Shown here in pieces: positions 1,308-18,120 of a DNA stretch of 64,000 nt. The translations under genes and the position numbers were made by a program. The notes under the pieces were generated by a model that ran no database searches, had not been told where the DNA came from, and saw only the letters and a program-made list of their open reading frames with translations. Position 1 is the first letter of the stretch. Every line of letters begins with the position of its first letter. Source of the stretch: Naegleria gruberi (Eukaryota); assembly GCA_000004985.1 (NCBI GenBank), contig GG738906.1; one strand, 5' to 3'.

Positions 1308-3218
1308 ATGTCAGTTGCCAAAAGCCCCACTAAAAAATTAAAATTTATTTGCTCTACTTCGTGTTCGGGACAAGAGCAAGAACGTGAACTTCTTGGACAC
1401 TATGAAAATGTAGAAACAAATGATAGAAGATTATTAAAAAAGAAGAGACAAGTTGATGAAACAATGGTACAACCATTGGAAGCTTCTCTACATCAACAAC
1501 AAACAGAAATAATTCTTGATGCTACATCAGCTGATCATCAAAATAATCAAACCGATACAATAATAGGAAATGATATTGGAAAGCCAACAAATTTCAAAAG
1601 AGGTATTCACATTGCCATTGATCATGAAAATGGAATTTTAAAAGGTTTGTTTAAAATAATAATCATCTCTCTTACACTTTCACCTCTTTGAAACCCTACT
1701 CTCTATATATACACACACAAACTAATCATATATTTCTATTTTATATATACACACTCTGTGCTCATATATAGGTGTTCCTGAACAATGGAGAGCCAAAGTT
1801 GGTGATGCACACTCATATGACAATTATCGTAAAATGACTGAAGATGAACCAATTGCACCTTATTTAATTCCCGATTTAGATCTAAATGCCGATTCCAAGA
1901 AGAAGAAGAATGATACAACAAGAACAACAACAACAGCACTTATTATTTCTGAACCACGTGAATTTACACATCACATTCATGTTGATTATAACCCTGAAAC
2001 TGGGTTTACTGGTTTACCAGATACTTGGAAAGAGATTTTAACTTCTGGTGTTAATGCAGGTCAAATTACAGTTGACGATGTTATGAATAATAAGGAAGAT
2101 GCATTAAGAATTGCAGAGGTAAGTTTAATTTCAACACGTAATTATATTATCATTTTTCAATGAATAATAATTTATTACACATATTTATTACAGTTTATTG
2201 ACAGTGGAATGACATTAGCACCTCTTAAAATTGATAAATTTCAAGGAGTCAAACAAAAAAGATTACCTGATTTTATTTCAATTGAAGATCCAACAAAGAT
2301 TTTTGAAAACATGATGCCAATAGATGAAGGATCAACAGGTGTTGTCATGATTGGAACTCACATCAAAACAGGATTGAAATGTGCATTGAAAAAAATTGAA
2401 ATTCAACAAACAACGAAATTGGAAGCTCTAGAAAATGAATTAACAATGATGGAATCATGTAAACATAATAATATTGTAGCATATATGGGAGCTTATCAAC
2501 ACAATAGTCATTTGTGGATTTCAATGGAACTTATGGACTGTGGGAAATTAACTGATCTCATCTATAAAACTATTCTAAGAGAGGATGAGATTGCATACGT
2601 TTTGAGAGAGACACTCAAAGCTTTGAAATATTTACACGACAATAACAAAATGCATAGAGATATTAAGAGTGATAACATTCTTGTTAACTCAAAAGGTGAA
2701 ATTAAATTAGCAGATTTTGGATTTTGTGTCGAGTTGAGTACCAAGAAGGAAAAACACAAGAGTACCGTAGGTACACCATTTTGGATGGTAAGTTATTCTC
2801 TTTTTTTTTCAAAATTCATACAAGTATCTATTAGGCTCCAGAAGGTTAGTTTCTTATTATTTATAACACTGTATCAAATTTCAAAAAAATAGTAATAAGA
2901 GCCATCGAGTATGGTCCTAATGTTGATATTTGGAGCTTGGGTATTATGGCTTTAGAAATGGCAGAAGGTGAGCCTCCTCTTATTGAACTTCCTGTTCTTA
3001 GGGCACTGTTTATAATTGCAACCCAAGGCCCACCAACATTAAAGGAACCACACAAATGGTCAGCCAATTTTAGTGACTTTTTATCAAGATGTTTGGTTAA
3101 GGATCCTATGGAGAGAGCATCATCCTCAGAATTATTGGAACACCCATTTTTAAAGATTGCTTGTGAACCACAAAAGATGGCCGACTTGATGAAAAAGTAT
3201 CACTTGTCAAAACACTAA
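1308..3218 (+). CDS. p21-activated kinase (PAK/STE20 family) Ser/Thr kinase with two tandem CRIB/PBD motifs. 5 exons: 1308..1644, 1772..2118, 2194..2787, 2835..2844 (micro-exon), 2893..3218.
   Basis: CRIB-like motifs [29 protein letters not shown] and [28 protein letters not shown]. Kinase motifs VAIKK-like [21 protein letters not shown] and GTPFWMAPE. APE is encoded by the 10-nt exon gctccagaag, flanked by ...tattag and gttagt... All junctions are GT-AG and in frame, and the downstream exon gives [29 protein letters not shown]. Confidence 0.85.
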
Positions 3219-3277: not shown

Positions 3278-6200
3278 TTACATATTTGCTTTCTTTGAGG
3301 ACACCAATCTTCCCTCTGACCAAACTTCGTCAAAGGACATGGAAAGTGTTTTTGAGTTTGGTGTTGCCAACCTTTTTTCTACATTATCTTTTGTTTCTAA
3401 TATTCCTACCCCGTGCTTTTTTCCTTTAAACCACTCCCCTCTATATTTAACTCCTGATGATAGCCCTTCAAAGAAGTAAATTCCCTTTCCTTGCTTTTGG
3501 TCGTTCACCCATTCACCATCATAAATATCACCATTGGCATAGGTAAAAGTTCCATGGCCTTGTCTCTTTCCGTCAACCACTTCTCCTTCATAGACACCTT
3601 CGAGATAAGTAATGATAGCCTTACCAGTTTGTTTATCCTTAGCCCACTCTCCTTCATACTTTGTAACACCATCTCCATAAGTTAAGGTACCTTCACCATG
3701 TCTACATCCTTTTTCGAATTCACCACAATATACAGAACCATCCCTAAAAGTAAATGTTCCCTTGCCATCTGGGAAATTATCAACAAAGTTGCCTTCATAC
3801 TTGTCACCAAGAGAAGTGTATTCAATTATTGCTTGTCCATTTTTTTTATCTTTCTCCCAATCACCAACGTGTGTGTAATTTGGAGTAAAATAATAGCCTT
3901 GCCCATGCCTATTATCGTCCAAGAGTTCCCCAGTATAGACAGATCCATCTGGATACTCTATTCTACCATAACCTGATTTTTTACCATTTACCCAAGAACC
4001 GTCATATGTTAGATCCGAACCTTTGTAAAAACCTTTACCATTAGGTTGACCTTTTCTGTCTAGTTCTCCACTATATTGTCCTTTTGCAAAATTAATATCT
4101 CCTCTAATAGGAGAGCTTGGTTCCTCCGCTATCTCATTTATCTGTGCTGCACTTTGATTGCCTTCTGTTGCACTATCATTTTCCTTATTAGCATCTGCTA
4201 ATATTTCTGCTTTTGGGGATTCTTTTTTTTCTGGTGTAATTGACTCAAGTTGATTAGTTTCATCATTAGAGGAGTTAGTTTGCAATGGTGTTAAATCTGT
4301 TGAGGCAGAAGGGGATAATGATTTTGGATATGTTATTTTTAAATTTGAATATTCTGGAGGAGGAGATAGTTGAGATTTTCTATTACTCTCCTCTTCGTCA
4401 TCATCCTTAATTAAAAGATTCCACTTTTTTGGAGATTCAAACGCTTTAAGAGTATCCTTGTTTTGTTTAAATCCGAGTTTGTGTTTTTTCTTTTTTTCTT
4501 GATTAAGTGATTTAAGTCTGGATGCAATAGGGGATTCGCTCCTTGAAAAATCTTCCTTAGTTAGTTTAGGGCTCTCATAAACAGGCATTTCAAGCCTGGT
4601 ATTAAGCATCTTTTCAAATGTGGTCTCCTCTTCGCTCTCTTCTGTTATTGGTGTATCTATAATATCACTACCATCAATATTATCAAAAGAAGTATCTGCA
4701 ATAATTTGTACAACGTCCTTAGGTCTTTCAGAAAAGACTGTTTGTGAAATATCATCTACTACATCATTTTCTTCCCCGTAACTAGATTCTGAAGAATCGG
4801 AATCATCCCCCGATGAGTTTGATGAAGACAAAATTGCTTTTGATGATTCCGAGTCTACTTCTTTTGCAACATTGGGTTTGCTTTCCTCTTGATTGGCATA
4901 ATGTGGAGGCTCATCAAATTCCTTAAGCGTTTTTTTGGAGGCTTCCATAGATGGTTCTTTTGCAGAGCGTTGTGCAGCACTATCAATGCCATTTGTTTTT
5001 TCTAGCTCAGTTGTGATTGGATAGAACGGTTCCTTTTTAGTTGCAGCATTAGAGATGTTTTGGATTTCGTTAGAGTGCAAGTTTTCATCATAGGTTTTGA
5101 GTTCCTCATCATCTGAAGAGGAGGAATCATTACTTGGTCCCTCATTGCTAAAGACAGAGTTTGAAATTTCGTCTTTTGGAGACTCATTCTTTGCTTCATT
5201 AGGATGTGTAAATTGTTCAATTGGAATAGACTTGGGAATGATTAAATCTTCATTCATTTTAGCATTTCTAGAATCACTTACATCCTTTACTTTTTCTAAA
5301 TAAATTGTTGGCTCTTCTTTATGTTCCTTGCTTGGCACATATGTAGGGCAATTTTCTGTTAATAAGGGTTTGTTTTCAATACTTGAGCGGTCTGAATTGA
5401 CATCTTCTTGTGTCTGGTTATTTTGTTCCTGAACAACTTGTTTGGCAGGGTTAGGAGTCCTAGGACTGGAAGCTTCTCCCTTCTCAATTTCAGTAATATC
5501 TTGCTGAGAAATAGAAGTAACTTTTTGTTTAGACTGATCAGGATTAATTACTGAGTGAGATTGAATCTCTTCCGTAGCTGATTGGTTCTCCATAGAGCTT
5601 GGTTGTTGTGTTTCATCAGTTTGTTCCGAATGTTGTTTAACATCCATCAGATGGTTATGTTCATTAATTGATGTGTTTTTGGTTGAAAGGTATGTTTCTT
5701 GGGCTTGGGTTGAATTAATTACTGGATCTTGTCTTGATTCCTTTCTTGGTTTTGAGTCATCGAACGACATGGAGGCAACTTCGTGGTGAATGATTTGTTT
5801 TTCATCCTCAGATAGGTCGCTTGGTAACTCTGACAATGAATCAAGATCTAAATTTTGCGGTATATGGTTTTCTGAGCTTGAAGACTTACTCTCAGGTTCT
5901 TGCAATGAAACTTCCACTACTGTGGAAACTTTGTTCTTCTCTTGCAGATGTTCATCTTCGTTAATTGATACAGGAGGATCTTGTTTGACTTGAGGAGAGG
6001 AAGAATGGCTTTTAGCCTCAACAATTTTTAAAGTCTTTTCTTTTAACTTTTCAAAATTAGTTTTTGGTTTTGGTTGTGGAATTTCAGGTTCTGAAACAAT
6101 AGGATGTCCTACCCTTTCAGTATCTTGAGCTAGTGGTTCGTTGCATATATTCTCTTCCTCTGTTGAATAATCGCTCTCAGATGTAGATTCGCCATTGATA

Positions 6201-7810
6201 GCATCTTCATCTGTGATAGATTCCGAAGAATCAGAGATGATATTTTTCTTTGAATCTGTTTGAACAACAGGAGCAGACTGAGTTCCAGAGGAGACTTTAG
6301 ATGAGTTTTGTTTTTCAACTGGTGGATCAGATTGTTCTGTAGGCGATCTAGATGTTGGTTTCGAATGGAGAGGGATTGGTTTCGTTTCCTCCTCAATCTC
6401 TTCTATTTTACATACAGTTTCCTCCTCTCTAACAGGTTCCTCATAAATAATCTCAATACCCTTATATTGTTCAGATCTTGATTTTCTAGGTTCTTCAATG
6501 GTAATTTCATCTTGGTTTTCGAAATAGGTTTCATCAATATATTTGGACATGTCATCACTTTGAGATTTTACTGTCTTTTCCTTGTGAGTTGGTTTTTTGG
6601 GAATGGATTCCTTCTTTTTTGATTTTTTAGGTTCCTTCTTATTCTTGTTATATTTCTTTTTGTTTTGAGCTTCAGCAATGCTAATTGTGCTTCTGTTGCT
6701 GGTGGTAGGCTCTACTTGAGCTGAAGTTTGTAAATCACTATTTTTCTTTCTATTCTTTTTCTTTTTTGGTTTTTCAAGAGATTCTGAAGCTACTCTCATT
6801 GGAAGGTTTGGGACATATTCATATCGTTGATTTATCCATTCATCATCAAGTTTTTCTTCGTCTTTTTTTGAGATAACTTCAACAATGATTTCGTCTTCAT
6901 CAGTGCTTGTCAATGTTTCTTCAGCAATAGTAACTGTTCCCTTATCTCTTATTTTTACAATTCTCCTGGGATACATATCATCAGATTCCACATTTGGTAT
7001 GTAAGATTCTGGTTCAACAGGATCTGTTTGAGTGCTTGCATCGATTTCAAAATCTGGAGTTTGAGTTTGAACCTCTCTTTCATTCAAAGTTTGTCTAACA
7101 AGAAAAACTTCTTGCGAGGTTCTGTCGTAAACTACATCTACACTTGGCGATTTGAATCCTTGTTTGATCGCCTCTTTCATCAATTCAACTTCCTTAGCAT
7201 CCCCATGAATACGCTTCCCAAACATATTATCAATGACAGGAGGAATTTCTGTTCCTCTGGAATAAAGCTTAGTTTTGGAATAAATGAGACTCGGGTTAAT
7301 ATCTATTGATGTTTTCACCATTGCGTTTTTTCCTTGTTCAGCAACTTGCTGTTTCTTTTTCCTTTCTTCATCTTCCTCTCTCTGTGATATATAACTCATA
7401 TATTCTTGGGAGTGAAAAGTTGGTTTATCGGTAGGGTGATGAGAATCTACAAGTGGTTTGTAGGAAGAACCAGAAGAGAAAAACTTTTCTTTTAGTGGTG
7501 ACGAAATGGAAGGAAGTGTAAGGGAGAGCTCGGCTTGTCTCGATCTTAACGACTCATCAAAGGTGCTCACGTTTGAGTTTGGTGTATTCAAAGAACTCTT
7601 TGGCAAACTTGTTTTTGAGCCAGTAGTACTAAAACTAGAAAAGGGAGAATTTAAAATCGAAGAAAATGAAGGTGATAAATCCAATCTAGGTGGAGCAAAA
7701 TAAGATGATTCCTTCTTTCTTAAAATGTCATCCCTATTGTTCGTTGACGAGGAAAACGTTGAAAAGGGGGACGAAAAAGAAGGAGAGGAGAACTGATAGT
7801 CTCTGCTCAT
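3278..7810 (-). CDS. MORN-repeat protein, 1510 aa. About 1100 aa of S/E/K-rich disordered N-terminus precede 8 or more C-terminal MORN repeats.
   Basis: Single long ORF. The C-terminus carries repeated YxGxWxxGxxxGxG units (YEGEWAKDKQTGKA, YDGEWVNDQKQGKG, YRGEWFKGKKHGVG and others). The N-terminus is low-complexity with KKKK/EEE runs. Confidence 0.8.
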   Translation of the reverse strand: MSRDYQFSSPSFSSPFSTFSSSTNNRDDILRKKESSYFAPPRLDLSPSFSSILNSPFSSFSTTGSKTSLPKSSLNTPNSNVSTFDESLRSRQAELSLTLPSISSPLKEKFFSSGSSYKPLVDSHHPTDKPTFHSQEYMSYISQREEDEERKKKQQVAEQGKNAMVKTSIDINPSLIYSKTKLYSRGTEIPPVIDNMFGKRIHGDAKEVELMKEAIKQGFKSPSVDVVYDRTSQEVFLVRQTLNEREVQTQTPDFEIDASTQTDPVEPESYIPNVESDDMYPRRIVKIRDKGTVTIAEETLTSTDEDEIIVEVISKKDEEKLDDEWINQRYEYVPNLPMRVASESLEKPKKKKNRKKNSDLQTSAQVEPTTSNRSTISIAEAQNKKKYNKNKKEPKKSKKKESIPKKPTHKEKTVKSQSDDMSKYIDETYFENQDEITIEEPRKSRSEQYKGIEIIYEEPVREEETVCKIEEIEEETKPIPLHSKPTSRSPTEQSDPPVEKQNSSKVSSGTQSAPVVQTDSKKNIISDSSESITDEDAINGESTSESDYSTEEENICNEPLAQDTERVGHPIVSEPEIPQPKPKTNFEKLKEKTLKIVEAKSHSSSPQVKQDPPVSINEDEHLQEKNKVSTVVEVSLQEPESKSSSSENHIPQNLDLDSLSELPSDLSEDEKQIIHHEVASMSFDDSKPRKESRQDPVINSTQAQETYLSTKNTSINEHNHLMDVKQHSEQTDETQQPSSMENQSATEEIQSHSVINPDQSKQKVTSISQQDITEIEKGEASSPRTPNPAKQVVQEQNNQTQEDVNSDRSSIENKPLLTENCPTYVPSKEHKEEPTIYLEKVKDVSDSRNAKMNEDLIIPKSIPIEQFTHPNEAKNESPKDEISNSVFSNEGPSNDSSSSDDEELKTYDENLHSNEIQNISNAATKKEPFYPITTELEKTNGIDSAAQRSAKEPSMEASKKTLKEFDEPPHYANQEESKPNVAKEVDSESSKAILSSSNSSGDDSDSSESSYGEENDVVDDISQTVFSERPKDVVQIIADTSFDNIDGSDIIDTPITEESEEETTFEKMLNTRLEMPVYESPKLTKEDFSRSESPIASRLKSLNQEKKKKHKLGFKQNKDTLKAFESPKKWNLLIKDDDEEESNRKSQLSPPPEYSNLKITYPKSLSPSASTDLTPLQTNSSNDETNQLESITPEKKESPKAEILADANKENDSATEGNQSAAQINEIAEEPSSPIRGDINFAKGQYSGELDRKGQPNGKGFYKGSDLTYDGSWVNGKKSGYGRIEYPDGSVYTGELLDDNRHGQGYYFTPNYTHVGDWEKDKKNGQAIIEYTSLGDKYEGNFVDNFPDGKGTFTFRDGSVYCGEFEKGCRHGEGTLTYGDGVTKYEGEWAKDKQTGKAIITYLEGVYEGEVVDGKRQGHGTFTYANGDIYDGEWVNDQKQGKGIYFFEGLSSGVKYRGEWFKGKKHGVGILETKDNVEKRLATPNSKTLSMSFDEVWSEGRLVSSKKANM

Positions 7811-8010
7811 TTTTTTGGATAATATTAAGGTTAGTGGTGCTCCTTGTACGGCTACTATTGGCGCAAAATTGAAACTTAAAATTATTAATACAAATTATTA
7901 AAAAAAATATTACGTTAAAAAAGTCACAACAAGATTAAATTGATTCTAATGGATAATTATTAATCATCAAATATTAATTATTAATTATCTATCAACAGTC
8001 ATTTAAAATT
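7811..8010. promoter_or_regulatory. A 200-bp AT-rich divergent intergenic region between the MORN gene (-) and the Kelch-SAM gene (+). Presumed bidirectional promoter.
   Basis: The start codons of two oppositely oriented genes lie 200 bp apart. The composition is extremely AT-rich, with poly-A/T runs. Confidence 0.4.
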
Positions 8011-10776
8011 ATGATAAACTCAGCCACTGAAGAAGAGGAGGAGGAATACATTTTAGCCAACTCGGACACACCCACAAATGTTAGGAGGAGAAGACTATGG
8101 GCTATTCCAAGTCCTTCCTTAGGTATTTCACCATCTGCACGTTGGGGTCACTGCTCTGTGTTATTGCACCATCACAATATAAATTCTTTCCATCCAACTT
8201 TAATGATATTTGGAGGATTTGATGGTTCGAACATGTTGAATGACATACACCTCTTTGATTCTGTTACCAACACTTGGAGTCAACCATCTAAAACGTTTGG
8301 AACAATACCATCAGCAAGATCTGGACATTCCACAACACTATTGACAAAAGAGAAAGGGAAAATATTATTGATTGGAGGAGGTAATGGCGTCCATTATTTA
8401 GCAGATTTAGTTCTACTTGAAGTTGTTAGCGAGGAAGATGAAGAATGGAAGAAGGAATCACAATTATTAGGTAATAATTCAGGAATTAAATGTATGAATA
8501 TGTTTAGATGGTCTCGACCTAAAGTATCAAGTCGTGTTAGAGTTTACATTTCTGATGATGACATTATTCTAACAGAGGAACAGTTTCAAAAGTTACAAGA
8601 GGAAATTAACAATAGTAAGAATAACCCTTCTGAAATATCGGAAGATGATCAAAACCCACTTGTTTCATCGAAGGTTGTTGAACAGTATATTAAAGCAAAT
8701 CAATCTGGAACAACAGAAGATTTGATTGGTTTTGGAAATCCATCACATCACGAACAATTAGATTCTCTAAATTTTACTATGAAAGAAATATATCCAGCTC
8801 CTAGAAGCAGACATACAGCCGTTGCTACTGAAGATGGCAGCAAAGTTATTGTATTTGGTGGTGGTGGTAAAAATCGAATTTTTGATGATGTATGGGTATT
8901 TCATGTACAGGAAATGGAATGGAGTCAACCTCAAGATTCTACAAATAAGCCTTGCCCAAGATGGGGTCACTCTGCTTGTATACATTCAGGTAAAATGTTT
9001 GTGTATGGTGGAGTTTTCAAGTCAAGCATGTTGAATGATTTATATTCTCTAGATTTGAATACCTTTGTTTGGACTAAAATTGAATTACCAACTTCAGATC
9101 CCATTCCTTCTCCAAGAGCAGCTCATACTGCCAACTTGGTTCTCGGTAGATATTTGTTAATTTTATGGGGAGGTGATGATATGAAATATTTGGATGATAT
9201 ATATATTTTTGATCTAAAAACTAATAGTGGAAAGAGAATATCATTTAAAAGTCCAAAAGCAAGATGTGCACATACATCTTGTCTTGTTGATGATAATTAT
9301 CTATTTGTATTTGGAGGAGGAGGAAGCCATCAAAGATTTAAAGAGCTTTATTTGTTCGATATCAAGGCAGCACTTGAAAAGGTTGGAATTTATGAAAATT
9401 TTGGATATGAATCTGATGATGAGTTTGAAGAAAATTTCAGTACCGATTTTTCAGATTATCTATGCCTTTCTCAATATTTGGATAAAGCCTCTCAATCATT
9501 CTTGGAGGTGAGGAGCGATATAAAAGTAGAAGGAAATGTTAATAATTTGGAGGAGAGATCCGAAAACACTCCTAACGTAACTGGAGACCCTAATATACCC
9601 TCGAGTGCAACATCTGTCTCTTCTGGAAAATCATCAAAAACAAGAAGAAAGAGATCCAGTTCAAAGAAAAAAACTTTGAGTAATATTTCAAATGGTAGTA
9701 TTTCTAATGATATGATGGCTTTCAGTAGTAAGGATATTAAGGAAGTAACCAATTGGTTAGTTAACTTGGGTCTAGGTAGATATGCAAATATGTTTGTACA
9801 AGAGGAAATAGATTTAGAGTGTATACCACTTCTTACTGACACAGACTTATTCAAACTTGGAATTTCTAAATTCGGTCCAAGAAAGAAAATTCTAGACGCT
9901 GCAAAGAAAATTACAAAATCATCTGAATCCGAGTCGGCTAACCACCACATTCATTCTAGGTCAACAAGTAATTTAAGTGAGACGTTACATTTGGAAAATA
10001 ACTCTCATGCCATTATTCAAAGTATGAGCTCTCTGAATATTACCTGTGACGGTATTAAGGATACTCTAAAATCACTTTCCTCAAACATATCAAATCTCAC
10101 ACTCATTCTGTCTAACCCATTCTATGGTTTTAGACATCCAACAGCTGTTGCTATTTCAATGCATAACAATACTAATACCTCATTTTCAAATGGAATTCCT
10201 ACAAATGTTCCACCCCAGCCTTCAACCCCTTCTACATCTACAAACAGTCAACCACCACTTTCACCTAGACAATCCAATTACTCTGTATCAATGTTTAATC
10301 AAAATATTCCACCTCCACCACCTAATCTTAGTCCAGTGTTTATTTCAAGACCCAGAAACACATCAGCTGTTGTGACTCCAATAGCTACATCCACTAGTAC
10401 ACCATTCAAAAGAAGTAATCCTAATTCTACTAGTAATAGTATCCTCATTCCAACCAAAGAATACCCAAATAGTTCAGCCATAAAATCTGATTCCAATTCT
10501 TCTTCTTTTGGAGGAAATATGGTTGAACCACAATATTCCCCAATATCACCCCCTCTTACTGGTATTGTTCCAATACCCCCACCTCCAACTAATGTACCAA
10601 TTCTGAAAAAGAAACGTAAACGAAAACCAAGGAAAAATGGAACATTCTCACAACAATCAAAAGATTTTGAAAACACCAATGATGAATCTCCTGAATTACC
10701 GTCTTTCTCAGCAGGAGAAAGTTGGTTTGATGTGACAGAAAAAGATTTAGAACAAGATTCAGAAAATGAAAATTAA
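8011..10776 (+). CDS. Kelch-repeat beta-propeller plus SAM-domain protein, 921 aa, with a Pro/Ser-rich C-terminus and a basic NLS (KKKRKRKPRK).
   Basis: Multiple kelch-type blades (WGHCSVLL...IFGGFDG...LNDIHLFD, RSGHSTTLL, RSRHTAVAT, RWGHSAC, RAAHTAN, RCAHTSC). SAM-like VTNWLVNLGLGRYANMFVQEEIDLECIPLLTDTDLFKLGISKFGPRKKILDAAKKI. Confidence 0.8.
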   Translation: MINSATEEEEEEYILANSDTPTNVRRRRLWAIPSPSLGISPSARWGHCSVLLHHHNINSFHPTLMIFGGFDGSNMLNDIHLFDSVTNTWSQPSKTFGTIPSARSGHSTTLLTKEKGKILLIGGGNGVHYLADLVLLEVVSEEDEEWKKESQLLGNNSGIKCMNMFRWSRPKVSSRVRVYISDDDIILTEEQFQKLQEEINNSKNNPSEISEDDQNPLVSSKVVEQYIKANQSGTTEDLIGFGNPSHHEQLDSLNFTMKEIYPAPRSRHTAVATEDGSKVIVFGGGGKNRIFDDVWVFHVQEMEWSQPQDSTNKPCPRWGHSACIHSGKMFVYGGVFKSSMLNDLYSLDLNTFVWTKIELPTSDPIPSPRAAHTANLVLGRYLLILWGGDDMKYLDDIYIFDLKTNSGKRISFKSPKARCAHTSCLVDDNYLFVFGGGGSHQRFKELYLFDIKAALEKVGIYENFGYESDDEFEENFSTDFSDYLCLSQYLDKASQSFLEVRSDIKVEGNVNNLEERSENTPNVTGDPNIPSSATSVSSGKSSKTRRKRSSSKKKTLSNISNGSISNDMMAFSSKDIKEVTNWLVNLGLGRYANMFVQEEIDLECIPLLTDTDLFKLGISKFGPRKKILDAAKKITKSSESESANHHIHSRSTSNLSETLHLENNSHAIIQSMSSLNITCDGIKDTLKSLSSNISNLTLILSNPFYGFRHPTAVAISMHNNTNTSFSNGIPTNVPPQPSTPSTSTNSQPPLSPRQSNYSVSMFNQNIPPPPPNLSPVFISRPRNTSAVVTPIATSTSTPFKRSNPNSTSNSILIPTKEYPNSSAIKSDSNSSSFGGNMVEPQYSPISPPLTGIVPIPPPPTNVPILKKKRKRKPRKNGTFSQQSKDFENTNDESPELPSFSAGESWFDVTEKDLEQDSENEN

Positions 10777-10834: not shown

Positions 10835-12379
10835 ATGGGTCAAACGACAAGTAGCGGACAAAATACAACCCTACTCACAGCTGGTCACAATCATGCCGGA
10901 CAACTTGTGAGCGAAGATTTTGTTGATCACTATCAGCTGCACAAAGTAAAACTTCCCTTCCCTGATTGGCTTGAAACTGGTAATGCTCTAACAAGAAAAA
11001 TCAAAAAACCAATCACCATCAAAAGAGCCAGTTGTGGTGCTGCTCATATGATACTAAGAACAAACCGATTGAATGATCTTTATGTAGTTGGTAAAAATAG
11101 TGAATTTCAATTGGGTCTTTCTAACAACAAACCTGTAAAAGAATTAACCAAAATCGATACCAACAAATTCTTGTTAAAGAATGAAAAGATCACAGATGTA
11201 TTTGCTGGAACTCTAGTTTCCTATATTATTGCCAGAAAGATTAATCCATCATCCGAAGAGGGTGATTCGATATATTGGTGTGGTTCTCCACCACTACAAA
11301 ATTTATATGTTCATAATGGAACATCCTTAGGACAAGAATCTAACTCTCCTACGGGAGCTTCATCATCTAATAATTCTCAACCAATTTCTAATTTTTCTTT
11401 TATTCGTTGGACACCTGAAGAAGGATGGAAGAAAAACTTTAGAGTTAAATGTTTTGATTGTTCACGTATTGGAGATGATCACTGTATAGTTGTAAATCAA
11501 TATAATCAAATTTTCGGAAGAGGCTCTAATGCCTATCATCAGTAGGTTTTATTTACTATTTGATTTTTTGATAACATTAATAATATTTTAGATACGGAAG
11601 AAATTTTGATGGTCAAAACTTTGAAAGATTGACAGAAATAAAATTAAAGGGATATGAGAAACAACCACCAAATGTAAAATTAGTTGCCTGTGGAGGATTT
11701 CACAGTGTTATAGTATTGCAGAATAATGAGTTTTACTGCTCTGGATTGTAAGTTTAATTTATAGATTTCTCTAATAATTTTTGATAGAAATTGTCACGGA
11801 CAATTGGGTTATGATGTAGAAAAAACTCAGTACGATTTTATTGAACCTCCTAATTTACCATTTAAAGGTAAAGAAATTACCAATGTAGCTCTAGGCTTAT
11901 ATCATACTGTAGTAGTAGTAGAGCATTCAACGATATATGTATGTGGTGATGGACGATATGGACAATTAGGAAATGGAGAAAACAAATCTATTAATCCAGT
12001 GTTTAGTCGTCTTAAATTAGAAGCTGTTTCACCAGTCACAGGTAATTTTATTAGACATATGAATACATTTATAATTGGTGTTTCATGTGGTCTAACTCAT
12101 ACCGTGATTGTTACAAGTGACAGAAAAGTCTGGAGATGTGGAGGAAATGACTTTGGTCAAATATTTTTAAAGAATGAACTTCAAACCTGCAGTTTTAGTG
12201 TAACATTTGAACCGAGATGTGAAATTAATCAAGTTTCGTGTGGTGGTAAATTTACTGCATTATATTTGAGAAAAAGAGTACCAATTTATGCATTTAATAT
12301 TGAAAGACATTTGAATATTTGGGAAGATAAGGAGAATATGAAATCTTATAGTGATATTGTTGTAAAATGTTTGCATTAA
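10835..12379 (+). CDS. RCC1-repeat (regulator of chromosome condensation-like) protein. 3 exons: 10835..11541, 11592..11747, 11788..12379.
   Basis: Repeated GxNxxGQLG-type motifs (LNCHGQLGY, GDGRYGQLGNG, GGNDFGQIF, VACGGFHSVIV, VSCGLTHTVIV). Introns 11542..11591 and 11748..11787 are GTAGGT/GTAAGT...AG and frame-preserving. Confidence 0.8.
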
Positions 12380-12480: not shown

Positions 12481-14584
12481 ATGTTGCTCACGGTTGTCTT
12501 TTTATCGGCAGCAGCATATCTTGGCTACCAAGCTTTTTTGACATTTGTTGGAAGTAGGTATTTAATAATACAACAATATAAAATTAAAACTGGCAGGCAA
12601 AAGAACATCAGTGTATGACTTGATCAAAAATCCAAAGTATAACTTGAAGACAGTAGAAGCACCAAAGCTAGCAGGCAAATTATTCTTATTTTTTGTAAAT
12701 TTAGTTGAATTTTCACCAGTTGGCGATTTTTTGGTGCCAATAATTCTCAAATCATCTGGTTTTTCAATCCTTGAAGAAATTTCTGTCTATAACGCTCCTG
12801 CTTTGGATCCCATTCCAATGAGAAACGAAGAAGAACATTTTAATGATTTAAAGCATTTCGAAGAAAATGGTAAATTATCCTGCATGGAAATCCAAAAGAA
12901 AGAAATTGCTAGAATCATTGATGAATACTTTGCTTCTGACATGTCAAAGGAAAATTATGTTTACAATACCATTGCTTATATTCACAAGTTATATAAGGAA
13001 AAGAAAACAACTCCTCTCCAAGTTGCTAAAAATATTCTAAAGGCAATTAAAGAGATTGATGAACAAAATCCATCCTTAAAAGCTGTTATCAAATATGATG
13101 AAAGTTTACTTTTGAAACAAGCTGAAGAATCCACTAAAAGATATGAAGAAGGAAAGGAAATTTCTGTATTTGATGGTGTTCCTGTAACAATCAAGGATGA
13201 ACTTGACCTTGCAGGTTTCACTTCAACCAAAGGAATGAAAGTTACAGAATACACAGAACATGTAATTACTGAAGACGAAGAATCCAATGTTTCAAAATCT
13301 TTACGTGCACTTGGTGTCATGTTCGTTGGTAAGGCCAACCAAAATGAAATTGGTATTTGTGGTAAGTAGTTATATCATTTGATTTAGTCTTTAAAATTCT
13401 AAAATAATTAATATAATTTTGATTTATAATTGTAAAATTTTATCTAGCTCGTGGTATCAATGTAAACTTTGGCTCAGCAAGAAATCCGTACAACCTCCAA
13501 TGTGATACTGGTGGTAGCAGTAGTGGTTCAGGTGCTGGTGTTGGTAGTGGTTTGATTCCATTGAGTATTGGTACGGATGGTGGTGGTAGTGTTAGAATGT
13601 AAGTATGATGAGATCTATTATATTTGAATTAACATCTGGATTTGGTGAACTATTGTCACTAGCCCTTCTTCTTTGTGTGGCGTTTATGGATTAAAGCCAA
13701 CTCATTACAGAATTTCAACCAAGCAAAAGAGTGCCCCTGTTGCTTTTAGTACTTGTGTCGCTGGACCAATGACTGGATCTGCTATTGATTTGACATTGAG
13801 TTTTGCTGCAGTTGCTGGCAGAAGAAGCAATGATTTGAAATCTCTTACTCAACCAAGGGATTTAAGATTGAACGAGATTAGACTTATGGATCCAGATTAT
13901 TATAATCTAAATGAAAGAAAAATTGGAATTCATAACGACTATTTTAATGACGTAAAAGATAATAGAATTCCAAAACTTTGTAGAGACTTTATTGAGAAGG
14001 TATTTTGTAAGATTTATAATGCTCAAATAGATGACTCTATTGTAATCCCATTATTGGAGCCTTCGAGGGTATCCCACTTGGTTACTATTGCCGGTGAAAT
14101 GAGAAATGGTATGAAAGATTATGGATATTATGAATATGATAAGAGATCCAAGCTTTGTCCAGAAACTAGAATGTCTCTTTTATCTCAAAAATACGCCTCC
14201 TCATCCGATTACATTACAGCTCAAAGAGTTAGATCTCACCAAATGGACGAATTTGCAAAACTCTTCGAAAAGGTTGATGTTATTGCATTGCCCACAGTTG
14301 GATGTGTTGCACCTGAATTTGATGAAAGTCAAGTTAAGAAAGGAGGATTGGGTGTCAGCGATTATGATGTACTCTCAAGTATCATGAAATTCATTTTCAC
14401 TTCCAATTTTTGTGGATTCCCTTCAGTTTCAATTCCTATTGGTTTTATTGATAACAAACCAGTTGGCTTGCAACTCATGGCCAAATGGTGGGATGAAGTC
14501 ACCCTTTTGAAATTTTGTTTACTCGCTGAAAAATACACTGAGAAGAAGAAACCACAAAAATTTATTGATATCACATCCCAATAA
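12481..14584 (+). CDS. Fatty-acid amide hydrolase-like amidase (amidase-signature family) with an N-terminal TM anchor. 4 exons: 12481..12553, 12597..13361, 13448..13598, 13663..14584.
   Basis: Amidase signature GGSSSGSGAGVGSGLIPLSIGTDGGGSVR, the Ser-cis-Ser-Lys context (TIKDELDLAGFTSTKG), FAAH-like SSLCGVYGLKPT, and N-terminal MLLTVVFLSAAAYLGYQAFLTFVG. All three introns are GT-AG and restore the frame. Confidence 0.85.
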
Positions 14585-14829: not shown

Positions 14830-17278
14830 ATGTTCAACAATGCTCCACCAAAAAACCTACTATCGATAACAACAAATACTAACCAGCAACTTCAACAACA
14901 ACTCATACCAACATTTAACATGTCCACAAATAATCAACCAACACACGCATCTTCTTTGACACCAAGTTTGAATAATATAGAAGTAGTTGGGAATGACAAC
15001 ATTCCCTCATCTGGAACAAATATAGATTTAATTAAGCAATTGCTCAATTCTAATCCACAACTACAAATGTACCTACATCAACTTGCCAATCAAACAGAAA
15101 ACAGTAACTCCATGTTGACAACATCCAATAATAATGTTAAAGTAGCAACAATTTCAGACCAAACAAATTCAACAATCGACAATATTCTTTCACTATTCAA
15201 TCAAAGCAATGAATCAAACAACATGTTACAACATCCTGGCAACTATGTATTAAATCACATGCCACAACTCCAAGAGCATAATATTACCTCCAATGCACAA
15301 CCAATGATGCATGGAGATTCTCAACATATTCTATCCCTCTATCTTTCATCAGAGGAAGTACAACAGTTGTTATTGTTGGATCAAGAAGCAACAAACAATA
15401 CTACCACCTTAAATCAACCCCAAATTACATCTCAAAGTTTTGTCAATCCATCAATTTTAAACAATAATTCACTAATAGTAGCAAACGAACAACCACCACT
15501 CTTTACATGCTCTAATTCTGGTACCAGAATCAATACGTGTGCATCTATTGAAGATCATAACAACGCATCCACACATTCTGACCATTTCCTTCATGATGTT
15601 TCTCCTTCGCTTCTTGCATCGCAACAAAATTTGCCTCACCATCAAAAACAAAATACTGCAAACATTGTTCGAAAGCATTCAATCCCCGATCTTCAACTTC
15701 ATCAACATCAACCTATCGTCAATCTCTTATATTCAACATCAACAACAATTAACCAAAATAATCATCACATGATTCAGCCACAAACAACAAATACACAATT
15801 TAATATGGAAATTTCTCCCTCTCCTTCACTTTCATTGCAAATTAATGAAATGGATTTTTATGATTTGCAATATATGAATCAGCCTTTAACGGATTTAGCT
15901 CCCCAACAATATAACAGATATATTTTTGATGGCTGTGAATTCATTCTACCCATCAGGTATTCACCAATAATGAGAGGTTCACAAGTAGTTTTTCTAGGAA
16001 GAGGAGCATACGGGCATGTAATTGCAGCAAATGACACTCAATCAGGAACAACAGTAGCTATTAAGAAAGTACAAAACGTATTTGATAAAGCTGCTTATAG
16101 AATGTTGAGAGGTTTGTGATTTTTATTTCAATAATTTTATTTATTATTTTTATTATTTAAAATAATAATTAATAATTATTTATTTTTATAATTTAATATT
16201 TTAGAGGTGAAAATAATGAGACATTTGAGAGGTCATCCAAATGTAAGTTTAAATTTAATTTTCCAAATTTTATCAATGTTTCAACTGTTATTTGAAAACA
16301 TTCATTATTTTGGATATAGATTGTGACATTAATTGATATTTTTATTCCTGGAAATACGTTAAATGAGTTTAAGGATTTGTATATAGTTTCAGAGTGTATG
16401 AATGGTGATTTAGGAAGAGTGATGACCAATCTATGCAATCAAAAGCAATGTTTATCAATAGATAATATTCGCGATATTATGGGGCAATTATTGAGTGCCA
16501 TGTACTATTTACAGAGTGCAGGAGTACTCCATAGAGATATGAAACCGAGCAATATTTTACTGTCACATAAATTCCAAGTTAAATTGAGCGATTTTGGAAT
16601 GAGTAGAAATGAGGCAACCAATCAACAAGTAACCAATCCTCAAAGTTTTGCTGTTGTAACTGAAATTTATCGACCTGTATGTACTTTACATTCTTTCCTT
16701 TATTGGAATTCGAAATGATCAATATTATACTTCAGCCTGAAGTTGTTTTGAATTATGAGATACAAACTTCTGCAATAGATTCGTGGTCTGTTGGATGTAT
16801 TTTTGCAGAGCTGTTATACATGTTACCGCCATCCTCAAAGAGAAGACCATTATTTGTAATTCTAAAGGATAGTGAAATTAGAGCGCCAAACCACTATGAA
16901 CATTTAAACTTGATGGCTTCTTTATTGGGAAAACCAAAGACAAATGAATTGAAAGGAAATCCACAATATGTACAAGAATTATTGGAATTATTGGAAAATT
17001 TCCCATCTCAAGGATATGATTTTTCTCTAATTTTCCCAGCAGCACCTCCGGAAGCCATTGATCTAATGAAAAGGTTTTTAACATGGAATCCAGAATCAAG
17101 GATATCCTTTGAGGAGGCTCTTAATCATCCCTTCATAAGGAGTAGTAATATGATAAACAGAATTAGGGCTGGCGAAAAAATTGGATCATTGGATGACGAT
17201 GTCAATGTGAGTTCGGAAAAGATAAAATTCCTCTTTTACAAGGAGATAGTGAGCTGGAAATTGGAAAATAAAAACTAA
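14830..17278 (+). CDS. MAPK-like (CMGC) Ser/Thr kinase. A 360-aa N/Q/S-rich N-terminus precedes a kinase domain with a shortened activation segment. 4 exons: 14830..16111, 16205..16242, 16320..16676, 16736..17278.
   Basis: GRGAYGHV...VAIKK, HRDMKPSNILL and DFGMSR. The activation loop is ...AVVTEIYRP|PEVVLNYEIQTSAIDSWSVGC, which has TEIY and lacks the VATRWY of canonical MAPKs. The C-terminal lobe reads LLGKP...DLMKRFLTWNPESRISFEEALNHPF. Confidence 0.8.
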
Positions 17279-17639
17279 TGGATTATTTTAGTGTACAATA
17301 TTCCACCAATTATTTTTCGGTTAAGGCTAATGAATAATCTTGCTTGTTGTTTTGCTAAATGGGCAACCCTTTTTCTAAGATCAACATTGTATCTAACAGT
17401 CGAATAATCCTTAGCTTCTCTAACACTGGCTGAATCTTTCCACATGCTATTCAATTCAAAAATATTACCAATGCAATCAAGAACCTCTTGATACTTTTTG
17501 TCACACAAACAATCTCTCACTCCCCATCAACATTGTAAACTTCGGTTGACTTTGATTTTCCTTTCGGTTTTTCTACAAAATACAAGCATAACTCTTAACA
17601 ATCTCATACATATTATTGCCTATTAGGAAGTCTGTTTCA

Positions 17640-18120
17640 TACCTCTAGTTTAGCATTTCTAAACGCCCTGCTGTGTTGACAGTGTCACCAATGGCAGTAT
17701 TGCACCTACCTTCATTAGATCCAATATTTCCAATAAGACAATTGCCAGTATTAATACCAGTTCTCACCAATGGAAGGTTTTCTTTTTGACAACTGGTCTT
17801 ATATTGCTCAATTCGGAATTAGCAAGCCATTGCTCTGGTGGCCTTTAAAGCATGATCAGGTTTTTAAAGGATGTGAAAAAAAACCATTTGACTCTATTGA
17901 GTATTCAGTATTGATTAAAATAATCAATGTTATCTATTACAACATACCGCCACCAATATATTTATCGAGCACTCCATCATTTTTCTCTACACTCTCTGTA
18001 ACTATGTTGAAATATTCAGTTAAAATCTTGAGAAGAATGGACAAACTGCAAGATTCAGAGCAAAGATCAGAATCAAATTTCATTTTATCAATTAATTACT
18101 AAAAGAACCCAATCTAAACC
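17640..18120 (-). pseudogene. Relic of a class III nucleotidyl (adenylyl/guanylyl) cyclase catalytic domain, disrupted by frameshifts and in-frame stops.
   Basis: Minus-strand segments, in order: KFDSDLCSESCSLSILLKILTEYFNIVTESVEKNDGVLDKYIGG (FSDIVGFT...IGD-like, with D->G), then ESNGFFSHP (SGLP-like), then KPDHALKATRAMAC (HAxxIAxMAL-like), then RTGINTGNCLIGNIGSNEGRCNTAIGDTVNTAGRLEML (RIGIHTGxVVAGVVG...GDTVNTASRME-like). The segments lie in different frames. The shift happens at an A5 run, and a TAA stop follows ...RAMAC. I could not find GT-AG introns that reconcile the frames. Confidence 0.45.

Follow-up and report, generated by a model that had tools for sequence, protein, structure and literature searches.

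A divergent Naegleria MAP kinase with a full-length activation loop in which the regulatory tyrosine and its binding arginine are replaced

We analyzed a 64,000-nucleotide stretch of Naegleria DNA (the window) that carries a spliced gene for a MAPK-like kinase, here called K3. The gene and its large-scale features are as follows.

14830-17278, plus strand: whole K3 gene, four exons, 739-aa protein; ATG at 14830, TAA at 17276-17278; the spliced translation is open and in frame.
14830-16111, 16205-16242, 16320-16676 and 16736-17278, plus strand: the K3 exons.
16112-16204, plus strand: intron 1, 93 nt, GTTTGT..TTTTAG, phase 1, within the codon of the alphaC glutamate Glu428; position identical in N. 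lovaniensis.
16243-16319, plus strand: intron 2, 77 nt, GTAAGT..ATATAG, phase 0.
16677-16735, plus strand: intron 3, 59 nt, GTATGT..CTTCAG, phase 0, between the Pro559 and Pro560 codons of YRP/PE.
14830-15984, plus strand: N-terminal region of ~385 aa, N/Q/S/T-rich, low complexity and poorly conserved (N 15%, Q 11%, S 11%, T 9%).

All K3 introns are GT..AG, and N. lovaniensis also has the 38-nt exon 2. The original prediction placed the 16676/16736 junction inside the activation segment, and this is where it lies, between the codons for Pro559 and Pro560; in the predicted transcript, ...TATCGACCT is joined to CCTGAAGTT. It also raised the idea that an alternative acceptor might restore canonical residues. 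Intron 3 has a single AG, its final two bases, read-through leads to a stop, and VATRW is not encoded in any frame between 16560 and 16800; alternative splicing that restores TEYVATRW is thus ruled out. Judged from this single AG, from the intron at the identical codon boundary in the N. lovaniensis orthologue, and from an alignment to MAPKs that crosses the junction without a gap, the junction is correct, and K3 is a real, spliced gene. There is a negligible chance that the odd loop reflects a wrong splice site or an assembly error at 16676/16736: the junction does sit within the motif of a sequence-based gene model, but exon 3 alone encodes the residues in question (S-F-A and T-E-I), the junction downstream of them joins only RP/PE, intron 3 offers one possible acceptor, the independently assembled N. 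lovaniensis genome has the same intron position and protein sequence, and independent metagenome contigs carry exon ORFs 98-99% identical to K3.

K3 had been counted as the third MAPK-like kinase of the window, which our scans do not support. Six-frame tblastn and phmmer searches, queried with K3 plus four diverse kinases, revealed no further MAPK-like kinase in the window. The only other kinase gene, at ~2164-3215 on the plus strand, scored best in the scan against a STE20-family (NIK-related) kinase.

The region preceding the kinase domain had been described as an N/Q-rich, prion-like N terminus of 360 aa. A polar low-complexity region of ~385 aa is indeed present, but the prion-like description is not supported: composition, window, and run statistics gave N plus Q of 26% overall and at most 33% per 60-aa window, with a longest N/Q run of 4, and so did not reveal the strong enrichment and runs by which such a region would be recognized. 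Only 60 of 223 alignable residues are identical in the N. lovaniensis orthologue. The last ~25 aa of the region, QQYNRYIFDGCEFILPIRY, are conserved and correspond to the MAPK-type N-terminal beta-hairpin, based on alignment and on the AF2 model (strands 3-8 and 11-16).

The Pfam Pkinase domain spans residues 388-693 (E=1.9e-58). As had been predicted, the catalytic residues are intact: VAIKK (Lys412), HRDMKPSN (511-518), and DFG (531-533) were all found, along with the Gly-loop, Glu428, the APE glutamate, and the CMGC arginine. K3 is thus predicted to be a MAPK-family Ser/Thr kinase that is functional and competent for catalysis. It keeps the CMGC arginine, Arg558, and has Met at DFG+1; proline-directed specificity may be retained. 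C-terminal to the activation segment are three further features.

16817-16891, plus strand: family-specific insertion after helix F, YMLPPSSKRRPLFVILKDSEIRAPN, aa 587-611, in all Naegleria/Willaertia family members (alignment to ERK2 and the family).
17141-17167, plus strand: CD-site equivalent SSNMINRIR, aa 695-703, without the acidic docking residues (D318 to M, D321 to R; alignment).
17210-17275, plus strand: L16-type C-terminal extension, SSEKIKFLFYKEIVSWKLENKN, aa 718-739, a MAPK-specific helix aligned to the L16 of AtMPK6 and ERK2.

Sequence and structure searches both returned MAPKs. The best 60 matches in a PDB sequence search were all MAPKs (2e-54 to 1e-46), as were the best 50 Foldseek PDB matches to an AF2 model of the kinase part (TM 0.78-0.91, with alignments of ~375-389 columns of the 381-aa model). 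The model has a pLDDT of 93.2, which drops to its minimum over the activation loop (64 and 80 as block means). In an exhaustive HMMER search, the neighbours of K3 were MAPKs with TxY, and MAK matches reached ~1e-25 versus 1e-54 for MAPKs. The MAPK/CMGC insert between helices G and H is present, aligns throughout, and is modelled with helices. L16 is unique to MAP kinases (bioRxiv 10.1101/2023.04.15.537040); the K3 extension, SSEKIKFLFYKEIVSW, aligns with the L16 of ERK2 and AtMPK6 and forms the helix at model residues 361-378. By sequence, fold, MAPK insert, and L16 helix, K3 is a divergent member of the MAPK family.

A neighbor-joining (NJ) tree with one CDK-like, two MAK-type, and one CK2-like sequence as a small outgroup agrees with the proposed MAPK/CMGC membership: K3 falls on the MAPK side, and the CDK-like and MAK sequences group together, apart from it, with 85% bootstrap. 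Deep branches within the MAPKs have bootstraps of 9-37%. K3 belongs to a Naegleria/Willaertia-specific clade (99.5% bootstrap) of three paralogue groups, which we label A, B, and C. Group A (100% bootstrap, stem branch 0.23) consists of K3 and its orthologue, N. lovaniensis C9374_010808; bootstraps for either grouping of A, B, and C are 21-25%. The other clade members carry S-x-Y (SMY/SLY) and VVTR[YNH]YRPPE, and the ancestral loop of the clade would likewise have read S-x-Y and then VVTR[YNH]YRPPE. A search of the accessible literature on Naegleria MAPK/CMGC kinases found nothing specific, and K3 draws attention to an undescribed clade of heterolobosean-specific MAPKs, characterized by an S-x-Y loop, the missing CD site, and a family insertion.

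The activation loop of K3 has three parts that bear on its regulation.

16590-16741, plus strand: activation segment DFGMSRNEATNQQVTNPQSFAVVTEIYRPPE, aa 531-561, 31 aa, split by intron 3; ERK-type length with gap-free alignment.
16644-16652, plus strand: Ser549-Phe550-Ala551 at the T-E-Y position; Tyr is replaced by Ala, and Ser is the likely sole phospho-acceptor (predicted).
16653-16741, plus strand: P+1 loop VVTEIYRPPE, aa 552-561; Arg191 to Glu555, Trp192 to Ile556, CMGC Arg558 kept.

The loop string given in the original prediction, VVTEIYRPPEVVL, is present in the K3 translation, where it had been read as a TEY expanded to T-E-I-Y, followed by a P+1 loop shortened by the loss of VATRW and therefore of new geometry. 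The letters T, E, and Y do occur in VVTEIY, the one point in favor of that reading, which the alignment refutes and which we judge highly improbable. From DFG to PPE, K3 has 31 aa, as does ERK2, and therefore no loop residues are missing. HMMER aligned K3 FAVVTEIYRPPEVVLN with AtMPK6 without a gap, MAFFT alignment to verified human ERK2 gave the same register, and the MAPK alignment is gap-free from FAVVT past PPE, pairing TEY with SFA and VATRW with VVTEI. The T and Y of the supposed motif are the near-invariant MAPK residues Thr190 (250 of 262 homologues) and Tyr193 (259 of 262). In the nearest paralogues, which read S-M-Y-V-V-T-R-Y-Y-R-P-P-E, the R-to-E and Y-to-I substitutions are directly visible. 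The look-alike thus exists because Arg191 is replaced by Glu and Trp192 by Ile, and with the register of the motif corrected, TEIY should not serve as a phospho-site hypothesis.

The same substitutions stand out against the MAPK signature, [TS]XX[LIVM]XT[RK][WY]YRXPEX[LIVM] (PMC3100106). K3 SFAVVTEIYRPPEVV is in register with it and fails only at [RK], which is Glu, and at [WY], which is Ile; 214 of the 262 homologues match fully. The T185 column holds Thr in 226 homologues and Ser in 28, and the Y187 column holds Tyr in 244. Ala at Tyr187, Glu at Arg191, and Ile at Trp192 each occur only in K3 and the N. lovaniensis orthologue (P0002), which differ at one residue across TNPQS[FL]AVVTEIYRPPE. 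In the same alignment, K3 keeps R67, R70, R148, R172, and R194. The T-x-Y dual-phosphorylation motif is absent from the K3 loop, and the predicted non-canonical activation is supported, because there is no TxY tyrosine. On these alignments, the loop is full length, and the regulatory tyrosine and its binding arginine were lost by substitution, not deletion. Another candidate phospho-site, in place of Ser549 or besides it, is the conserved Thr four positions upstream (T-N-P-x-S).

Docking was also expected to be non-canonical, and the residues agree. The alignment found neither the acidic CD site, with Met and Arg at Asp318 and Asp321, nor the hydrophobic D-motif groove, in which His125 is Asn and Tyr128 is Asp. 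No member of the Naegleria/Willaertia clade retains the CD site, and the canonical acidic site would be unusable for docking partners of K3 and its relatives alike.

In ERK2 (rat numbering), pT183 contacts R65, R68, R146, and R170, and pY185 contacts R189 and R192 (bioRxiv 10.1101/2023.04.15.537040). The four arginines that clamp phospho-Thr are all found in K3, as Arg424 and Arg427 in alphaC, the HRD Arg512, and Arg536 after DFG. We propose that in group A the phospho-tyrosine half of the dual switch was dismantled through the replacement of Tyr by Ala551, of the phospho-Tyr-binding Arg by Glu555, and of Trp by Ile556, and that the phospho-threonine half, Ser549 with the four arginines, would remain intact. 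Activation of K3 would then take only one phosphorylated residue, Ser549, modified either by an upstream kinase or by K3 itself. This is the most likely mode because the phospho-Thr-binding arginines are kept; on whether K3 in fact uses it we are evenly divided. Phospho-Ser549 would order the loop as in CDKs (T-H-E-V-V-T-L-W-Y-R-A-P-E) or in monophosphorylated atypical MAPKs, and the role of the phospho-Tyr phosphate may be taken by Glu555, paired with the retained CMGC Arg558. K3 is probably an atypical MAP kinase of the single-phosphorylation type. For the explanation as a whole (a competent, clade-specific MAPK with its phospho-Tyr half lost, Ser549 monophosphorylation, Glu555-Arg558 pairing, and docking other than through the CD site), our confidence is moderate. 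It is high for the gene model, family placement, loop register, residue states, purifying selection, and unique triple substitution.

K3 could instead be constitutively active, with the Glu555-Arg558 pair mimicking phospho-Tyr, no loop phosphorylation, and control through protein abundance or the long N-terminal region. The Arg-to-Glu charge reversal falls exactly at the phospho-Tyr-binding arginine, with Arg558 kept, and NLK-type T[HQ]E loops provide a precedent for a phosphomimetic Glu in place of the Tyr (PMC3100106). Active, phosphorylated forms of ERK2 and p38 are among the structural matches with the lowest rmsd (2erk, 2.5 A; 3py3, 2.4 A), but AF2 favors active-like states, so this match carries little weight. 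We consider constitutive activity unlikely, as the four-arginine phospho-Thr pocket and the Ser at the Thr position are conserved in both species and would be needless without a bound phosphate.

Slightly less likely still is that the dual switch has been split between Naegleria paralogues, with group A keeping the phospho-Ser/Thr clamp, Arg172 equivalent included, and a Glu555-Arg558 pair substituting for its erased phospho-Tyr half, and with groups B and C keeping the Tyr and two arginines without the Arg172 equivalent. If this were true, duplication would have resolved one two-input kinase into single-input kinases, and K3 would combine a MAPK fold with a CDK-style T-loop and provide a natural experiment on the separate contributions of the two phosphates to MAPK activation.

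The alternative that K3 is a pseudokinase or a decaying paralogue, with loop changes that mark the loss of regulated kinase function and at most a scaffold role, can be weighed against its conservation. Between the kinase parts of K3 and its N. lovaniensis orthologue, pN is 0.139 and pS is 0.783; synonymous sites are saturated, so that dN << dS is a qualitative statement only. This comparison indicates strong purifying selection on the K3 kinase part. The N. fowleri and N. gruberi annotations contain no group A orthologue, and group A comprises two species. Starting at the Metallophos gene, the N. fowleri Kelch/SAM locus is colinear with that of N. lovaniensis; no K3-like sequence was found in 23 kb of this locus, in which the expected position lies at or past the edge. 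The neighboring 921-aa Kelch/SAM ORF is 63% identical to that of N. lovaniensis and 55% to that of N. fowleri, and has 100% matches in ENA metagenome contigs only. The two missing annotations would fit a decaying gene, as would three radical substitutions within the best-conserved motif of MAPKs, the long group A stem branch, and the loss of CD-site and DEF-pocket residues. Against this, every catalytic residue is intact, pN is low relative to the saturated pS, and the ORF is intact and the introns conserved in two species whose Kelch/SAM neighbor is only 63% identical. A lost or decaying kinase is thus quite improbable.

Among known kinases, the best sequence matches to K3 are ERK-type MAPKs, namely human ERK2, Arabidopsis MPK6 and MPK4, and Magnaporthe Mps1 (E ~1e-54 to 1e-47); MAPK homologues are 31-41% identical to K3 (alignment A1), and the ERK-type fold matches with a TM of 0.8-0.9. 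K3 and the ERK-type MAPKs share the N-terminal hairpin, the MAPK insert, L16, the four phospho-Thr-binding arginines, the CMGC arginine, and a 31-aa DFG-APE segment. They differ in that K3 has S-F-A for TEY, Glu for Arg191, Ile for Trp192, no CD aspartates or groove His/Tyr, a 15-aa insertion after helix F, DFG-Met rather than DFG-Leu, and the 385-aa low-complexity N terminus.

Closer to K3 are the S-x-Y paralogues of the same clade, at 45-53% identity: N. gruberi XP_002675474 and XP_002676634, N. fowleri FDP41_012033 and FDP41_004265, N. lovaniensis C9374_000422, and several Willaertia magna proteins. Like K3, they have Ser for the TxY Thr, a YRPPE end, the family insertion, no CD site, and the L16 helix. 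They keep the Tyr and the phospho-Tyr-binding Arg (S-M/L-Y, VVTR[YNH]Y) and have lost the Arg172 equivalent (DFGLST or DFGLSN), whereas K3 shows the opposite pattern, with Arg536 kept and the Tyr and Arg191 lost.

The CDK T-loop has the same spacing as the K3 loop: a phospho-acceptor, two residues, V-V-T, a non-arginine, an aromatic or aliphatic residue, and Y-R-x-P-E, as in the CDK-like match P0058, which shows PLTHEVVTLWYRAPE. Its single phosphosite is clamped by the alphaC, HRD, and DFG+5 arginines, as proposed for K3. Unlike CDKs, K3 has no PSTAIRE-type cyclin-binding helix and does have the MAPK insert and L16, and CDK-like sequences fall outside its clade.

Several MAPKs share with K3 a MAPK fold without the TxY Tyr, with one loop phosphorylation possible: ERK3/4 (S-E-G), NLK (T-[HQ]-E), Pfmap-2/TgMAPK3 (T-S-H, T-G-H), and plant variants. 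NLK also lacks an equivalent of Arg191 (VVTQYY). Atypical MAPKs that are monophosphorylated (SEG, T[HQ]E, TGH, TSH) form a recognized class, and K3 has the features by which it is defined, a MAPK fold, Ser549, no Tyr (Ala551), and an intact catalytic core (PMC3100106); the plant loops T-E-M, T-Q-M, and T-E-C are also known (PMC4363184). K3 is probably not orthologous to any of these kinases: its motif matches neither S-E-G with S-P-R (ERK3/4), T-Q-E (NLK), nor T-E-Y with a long regulatory C terminus (ERK7/8), and K3 nests in a heterolobosean-only clade, in a tree that, like the alignments, contained no ERK3, NLK, or ERK7 sequences and no verified ERK3/4, NLK, or ERK7/8 references. Loss of the TxY tyrosine is thus familiar from animal, apicomplexan, and plant MAPKs, and the general principle is not new. 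S-F/L-A with Glu at Arg191 is found in no other of the 262 homologues, and in the conserved, selected K3 lineage the tyrosine and its binding arginine have been replaced together, offering a clean natural test of the coupling between the phospho-Tyr pocket and the P+1 loop and of glutamate as a stand-in for phosphate.

The kinase gene under study, K3, has an open reading frame at 14830-17278 (+) that starts with ATG and, after splicing of its four exons, encodes an uninterrupted product of 739 aa with a Pfam Pkinase domain at aa 388-693 (E=1.9e-58). Its introns are all short and bounded by GT..AG:
16112-16204 (+), intron 1
16243-16319 (+), intron 2
16677-16735 (+), intron 3

The motifs quoted in the original prediction were all found (VAIKK with Lys412, HRDMKPSN at aa 511-518, DFG at aa 531-533, and the string VVTEIYRPPEVVL), and junction 16676|16736 is the boundary between the Pro559 and Pro560 codons; its coordinates and literal observation were therefore correct. 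We searched this junction for an alternative acceptor that would restore VATRW, the block described as deleted. Intron 3 has one AG only, at its 3' end, read-through leads to a stop, and VATRW is encoded by no frame of 16560-16800. The residues that set the loop apart, S-F-A and T-E-I, precede the junction and lie wholly in exon 3. N. lovaniensis C9374_010808 (P0002), the closest annotated relative at about 75% identity over the kinase part, has the same loop, ITNPQSLAVVTEIYRPPEVVLNY, and its genomic locus carries a GT..AG intron at the identical codon boundary, RP|PE. We reconstructed the six exons of this orthologue from DNA: the three introns of K3 match its introns 1-3 in position, and the 38-nt exon 2 is shared. 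On four lines of sequence evidence, we take the K3 junction to be correct. In the region L001 7658-8436, the N. lovaniensis gene has two extra introns, at 7719-7816 and 8008-8127, where the window has the single exon 16736-17278, indicating gain or loss of introns between the two species.

The activation loop had been read as carrying TE-I-Y at the TEY position, with a truncated P+1 loop. HMMER aligned ...FAVVTEIYRPPEVVLN to the AtMPK6 stretch without a gap, a MAFFT alignment including human ERK2 (identical to PDB 3SA0_A) gave the identical register, and DFG-to-PPE in K3 spans 31 residues, as does DFG-to-APE in ERK-type MAPKs. In this register, T-E-Y corresponds to S549-F550-A551, and the ERK2 P+1 loop corresponds to V-V-T-E-I-Y-R-P-P-E. 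The column holding the T of TEIY is Thr in 250 of 262 homologous kinase domains, and the column holding the Y is Tyr in 259 of them. Given the gapless alignment, the equal length, and these counts, the truncation is a registration error. Rather than a regulatory motif, the T and Y are two structural residues found in every MAPK, Thr190 and Tyr193 (numbered as in human ERK2), and TEIY is a look-alike produced by replacement of Arg191 by Glu and Trp192 by Ile.

The best 60 PDB sequence matches of K3 are all MAPKs, led by AtMPK6 (2e-54) and followed by AtMPK4, Mps1, p38gamma, ERK5, ERK2, ERK1, and p38alpha; when 1.84 billion representatives were searched exhaustively with HMMER, its neighbours were TxY MAPKs. 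We modelled aa 359-739 with AlphaFold2 from a 60-sequence alignment (mean pLDDT 93.2, pTM 0.93). The model has the N-terminal hairpin and, at model residues 361-378, a C-terminal helix, and its best 50 Foldseek matches in the PDB are all MAPKs (TM 0.78-0.91, about 380 columns). This C-terminal helix corresponds to L16, described as unique to MAP kinases (bioRxiv 10.1101/2023.04.15.537040). K3 is a MAPK-family protein by descent and fold. Three textbook MAPK features are not present, as K3 lacks TxY and the CD site and two of its residues deviate from the strict signature. The fold-level features are present: K3 resembles MAPKs most closely and has the MAPK insert and L16. We therefore call K3 a divergent MAPK-family member, whose loop variant is new and whose kind of kinase is not. 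The prediction of a divergent MAPK with noncanonical activation and docking is supported, but the reason given for it, a truncated loop, was wrong. That K3 is the third MAPK-like kinase could not be confirmed, because the one further kinase that six-frame scans of the window revealed is most similar to the STE20 family. The genes around K3 are as follows:
2164-3215 (+), kinase in two ORF pieces, 2209-2892 and about 2850-3215 (Pkinase E=3.8e-42 and 6.3e-14), containing GTPFWM; best match in the scan a NIK-related (STE20-family) kinase, 2.4e-34
3278-7810 (-), 1510-aa ORF with C-terminal repeats resembling, by eye, MORN repeats (YxGxWxxGKxxGxG)
8011-10776, Kelch/SAM ORF
10835-12379 (+), RCC1-repeat protein (Pfam RCC1-like matches)
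12611-14584 (+), split amidase gene (Pfam Amidase E=2.1e-29), ending 245 nt upstream of the K3 start
17275-17520 (-), 81-aa ORF overlapping the K3 stop codon
17645-17770 (-), adenylate/guanylate cyclase catalytic domain fragment (Pfam Guanylate_cyc E=7.7e-5, GDTVNTAGRLE)

The kinase at 2164-3215 is the sole other protein kinase in the window and is not MAPK-like. The cyclase fragment, on the opposite strand immediately 3' of K3, probably extends over about 17300-18100 (-); since the 81-aa ORF overlaps the K3 stop codon, the two genes are convergent with almost no spacer. The Kelch/SAM ORF shares 55% identity with N. fowleri FDP41_008761 and 63% with N. lovaniensis C9374_010815; at 98-100%, its only matches are ENA metagenome contigs (ERZ929261, run ERR1078381, PRJEB11402), and the search gave no N. 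gruberi match to it. By homology, the window derives from a Naegleria-like heterolobosean other than N. fowleri and N. lovaniensis. Window GC is 33.8%.

The proteins nearest to K3's group are 45-54% identical and all from Naegleria or Willaertia, except P0053, an ENA metagenome protein. The clade comprises three paralogue groups:
Group A: K3 and N. lovaniensis C9374_010808; loop S-F/L-A, VVTEIYRPPE
Group B: N. gruberi XP_002675474, N. fowleri FDP41_012033, and three W. magna proteins; loop S-M/L-Y (S-L-F in one W. magna paralogue), VVTR[YNH]YRPPE
Group C: N. lovaniensis C9374_000422/_013218, N. fowleri FDP41_004265, N. gruberi XP_002676634, and one W. magna protein; loop S-M/L-Y, VVTRYYR[SP]PE in most members

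A bootstrapped NJ tree recovered A+B+C as monophyletic in 99.5% of its replicates and group A in all of them (100%), placed CDK-like and MAK sequences in a separate clade (85%), and settled no branching order among the three groups. A larger NJ tree left this picture unchanged; the trees, which left out ERK3, NLK, and ERK7 references, did not settle deep MAPK branching. The whole clade has an insertion of ~15 residues after helix F (LLYMLPP..RRPLF...) and the L16 helix, and most members have YRPPE. It lacks the groove residues His125 and Tyr128 and the acidic CD docking site, where ERK2 Asp318/Asp321 correspond to Met/Arg in K3; because the CD site is absent, the sequence implies that K3 docking must be noncanonical. 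In the literature that we searched, there was no paper on Naegleria MAPKs, and a 2011 review knew of none. Neither N. fowleri nor N. gruberi has an annotated group A orthologue, and the 23 kb retrieved of the N. fowleri syntenic locus holds no K3-like sequence, the expected position being at the locus edge; a K3-type gene may have been lost or relocated in that species. N. fowleri is colinear with N. lovaniensis from the Metallophos gene onward. In N. lovaniensis, C9374_010808 and the Kelch/SAM gene C9374_010815 are on one contig, seven genes apart, and another Pkinase gene is directly upstream of the K3 orthologue.

Only two of the 262 homologues, K3 and its N. lovaniensis orthologue, have Ala in the Tyr187 column, Glu in the Arg191 column, or Ile in the Trp192 column. 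In ERK2 (rat numbering), Arg189 and Arg192 hold pTyr185, and Arg65, Arg68, Arg146, and Arg170 hold pThr183 (bioRxiv 10.1101/2023.04.15.537040). K3 has lost the tyrosine together with the first of its two arginines and has kept the second, the CMGC arginine Arg558. Ser549 stands where ERK2 has the Thr, and all four pThr-binding arginines are kept (Arg424, Arg427, Arg512, and Arg536). Groups B and C have kept the tyrosine and both its arginines, and their Arg170/172 equivalent has become Thr or Asn (DFGLST, DFGLSN). This loss, in P0045, P0204-P0209, P0047, and P0051, mirrors K3, and it is possible that the dual-phosphorylation switch has been partitioned between these paralogues. Within group B, the loop of P0207 (Willaertia magna ABK040_006964), S-L-F-V-V-T-R-H-Y, has Phe for Tyr with the arginine kept, which points to an independent loss of the loop tyrosine. 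The DFG+1 residue, which affects the +1 substrate specificity of CMGC kinases (eLife 2014, PMC4228266), is Met534 (16599-16601) in K3 and its orthologue and Leu in 238 of 262 homologues; K3 substrate preference may therefore have shifted too.

K3 is probably an atypical MAPK of the monophosphorylation type. Ser549 would be phosphorylated by an upstream kinase or by K3 itself, and the intact basic pocket would recognize the phosphate, as it does in CDKs; the place of the pTyr phosphate may be taken by Glu555, paired with Arg558. That this Glu-Arg pair makes K3 constitutively active is rather unlikely. We doubt more strongly that K3 is a pseudokinase or decaying gene, as the catalytic residues are all intact and the gene is under purifying selection. 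Against the N. lovaniensis orthologue, the kinase part has 294 of 375 residues identical, with pN=0.139 versus a saturated pS=0.783, and a single position differs within TNPQS[FL]AVVTEIYRPPE. The neighbouring Kelch/SAM protein, only 63% identical between the window and N. lovaniensis, shows that the two species are well separated. The low pN, the near-identical loop, and this separation argue that the derived loop is held by purifying selection. The N-terminal ~364 aa are fast-evolving, with 60 identical of 223 alignable codons; they form a polar low-complexity region with 26% N+Q (at most 33% in any 60 aa, longest N/Q run 4), and the description as prion-like is not supported. With its T and Y at structural positions, TE-I-Y as the regulatory motif is barely credible, and a splice or assembly artefact, given the junction evidence, is the least probable of all.

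Monophosphorylatable MAPKs are an established class, with S-E-G in ERK3/4, T-[HQ]-E in NLK, and T-S-H and T-G-H in protozoa (PMC3100106), and plant MAPK variants carry T-E-M, T-Q-M, and T-E-C (PMC4363184). K3 would work like these; it nests in a heterolobosean-only clade and is probably an orthologue of none of them. K3 shares its spacing with the T-loop of CDKs, T-H-E-V-V-T-L-W-Y-R-A-P-E, which likewise lacks the first arginine; the CDK-like match P0058 has this pattern too.
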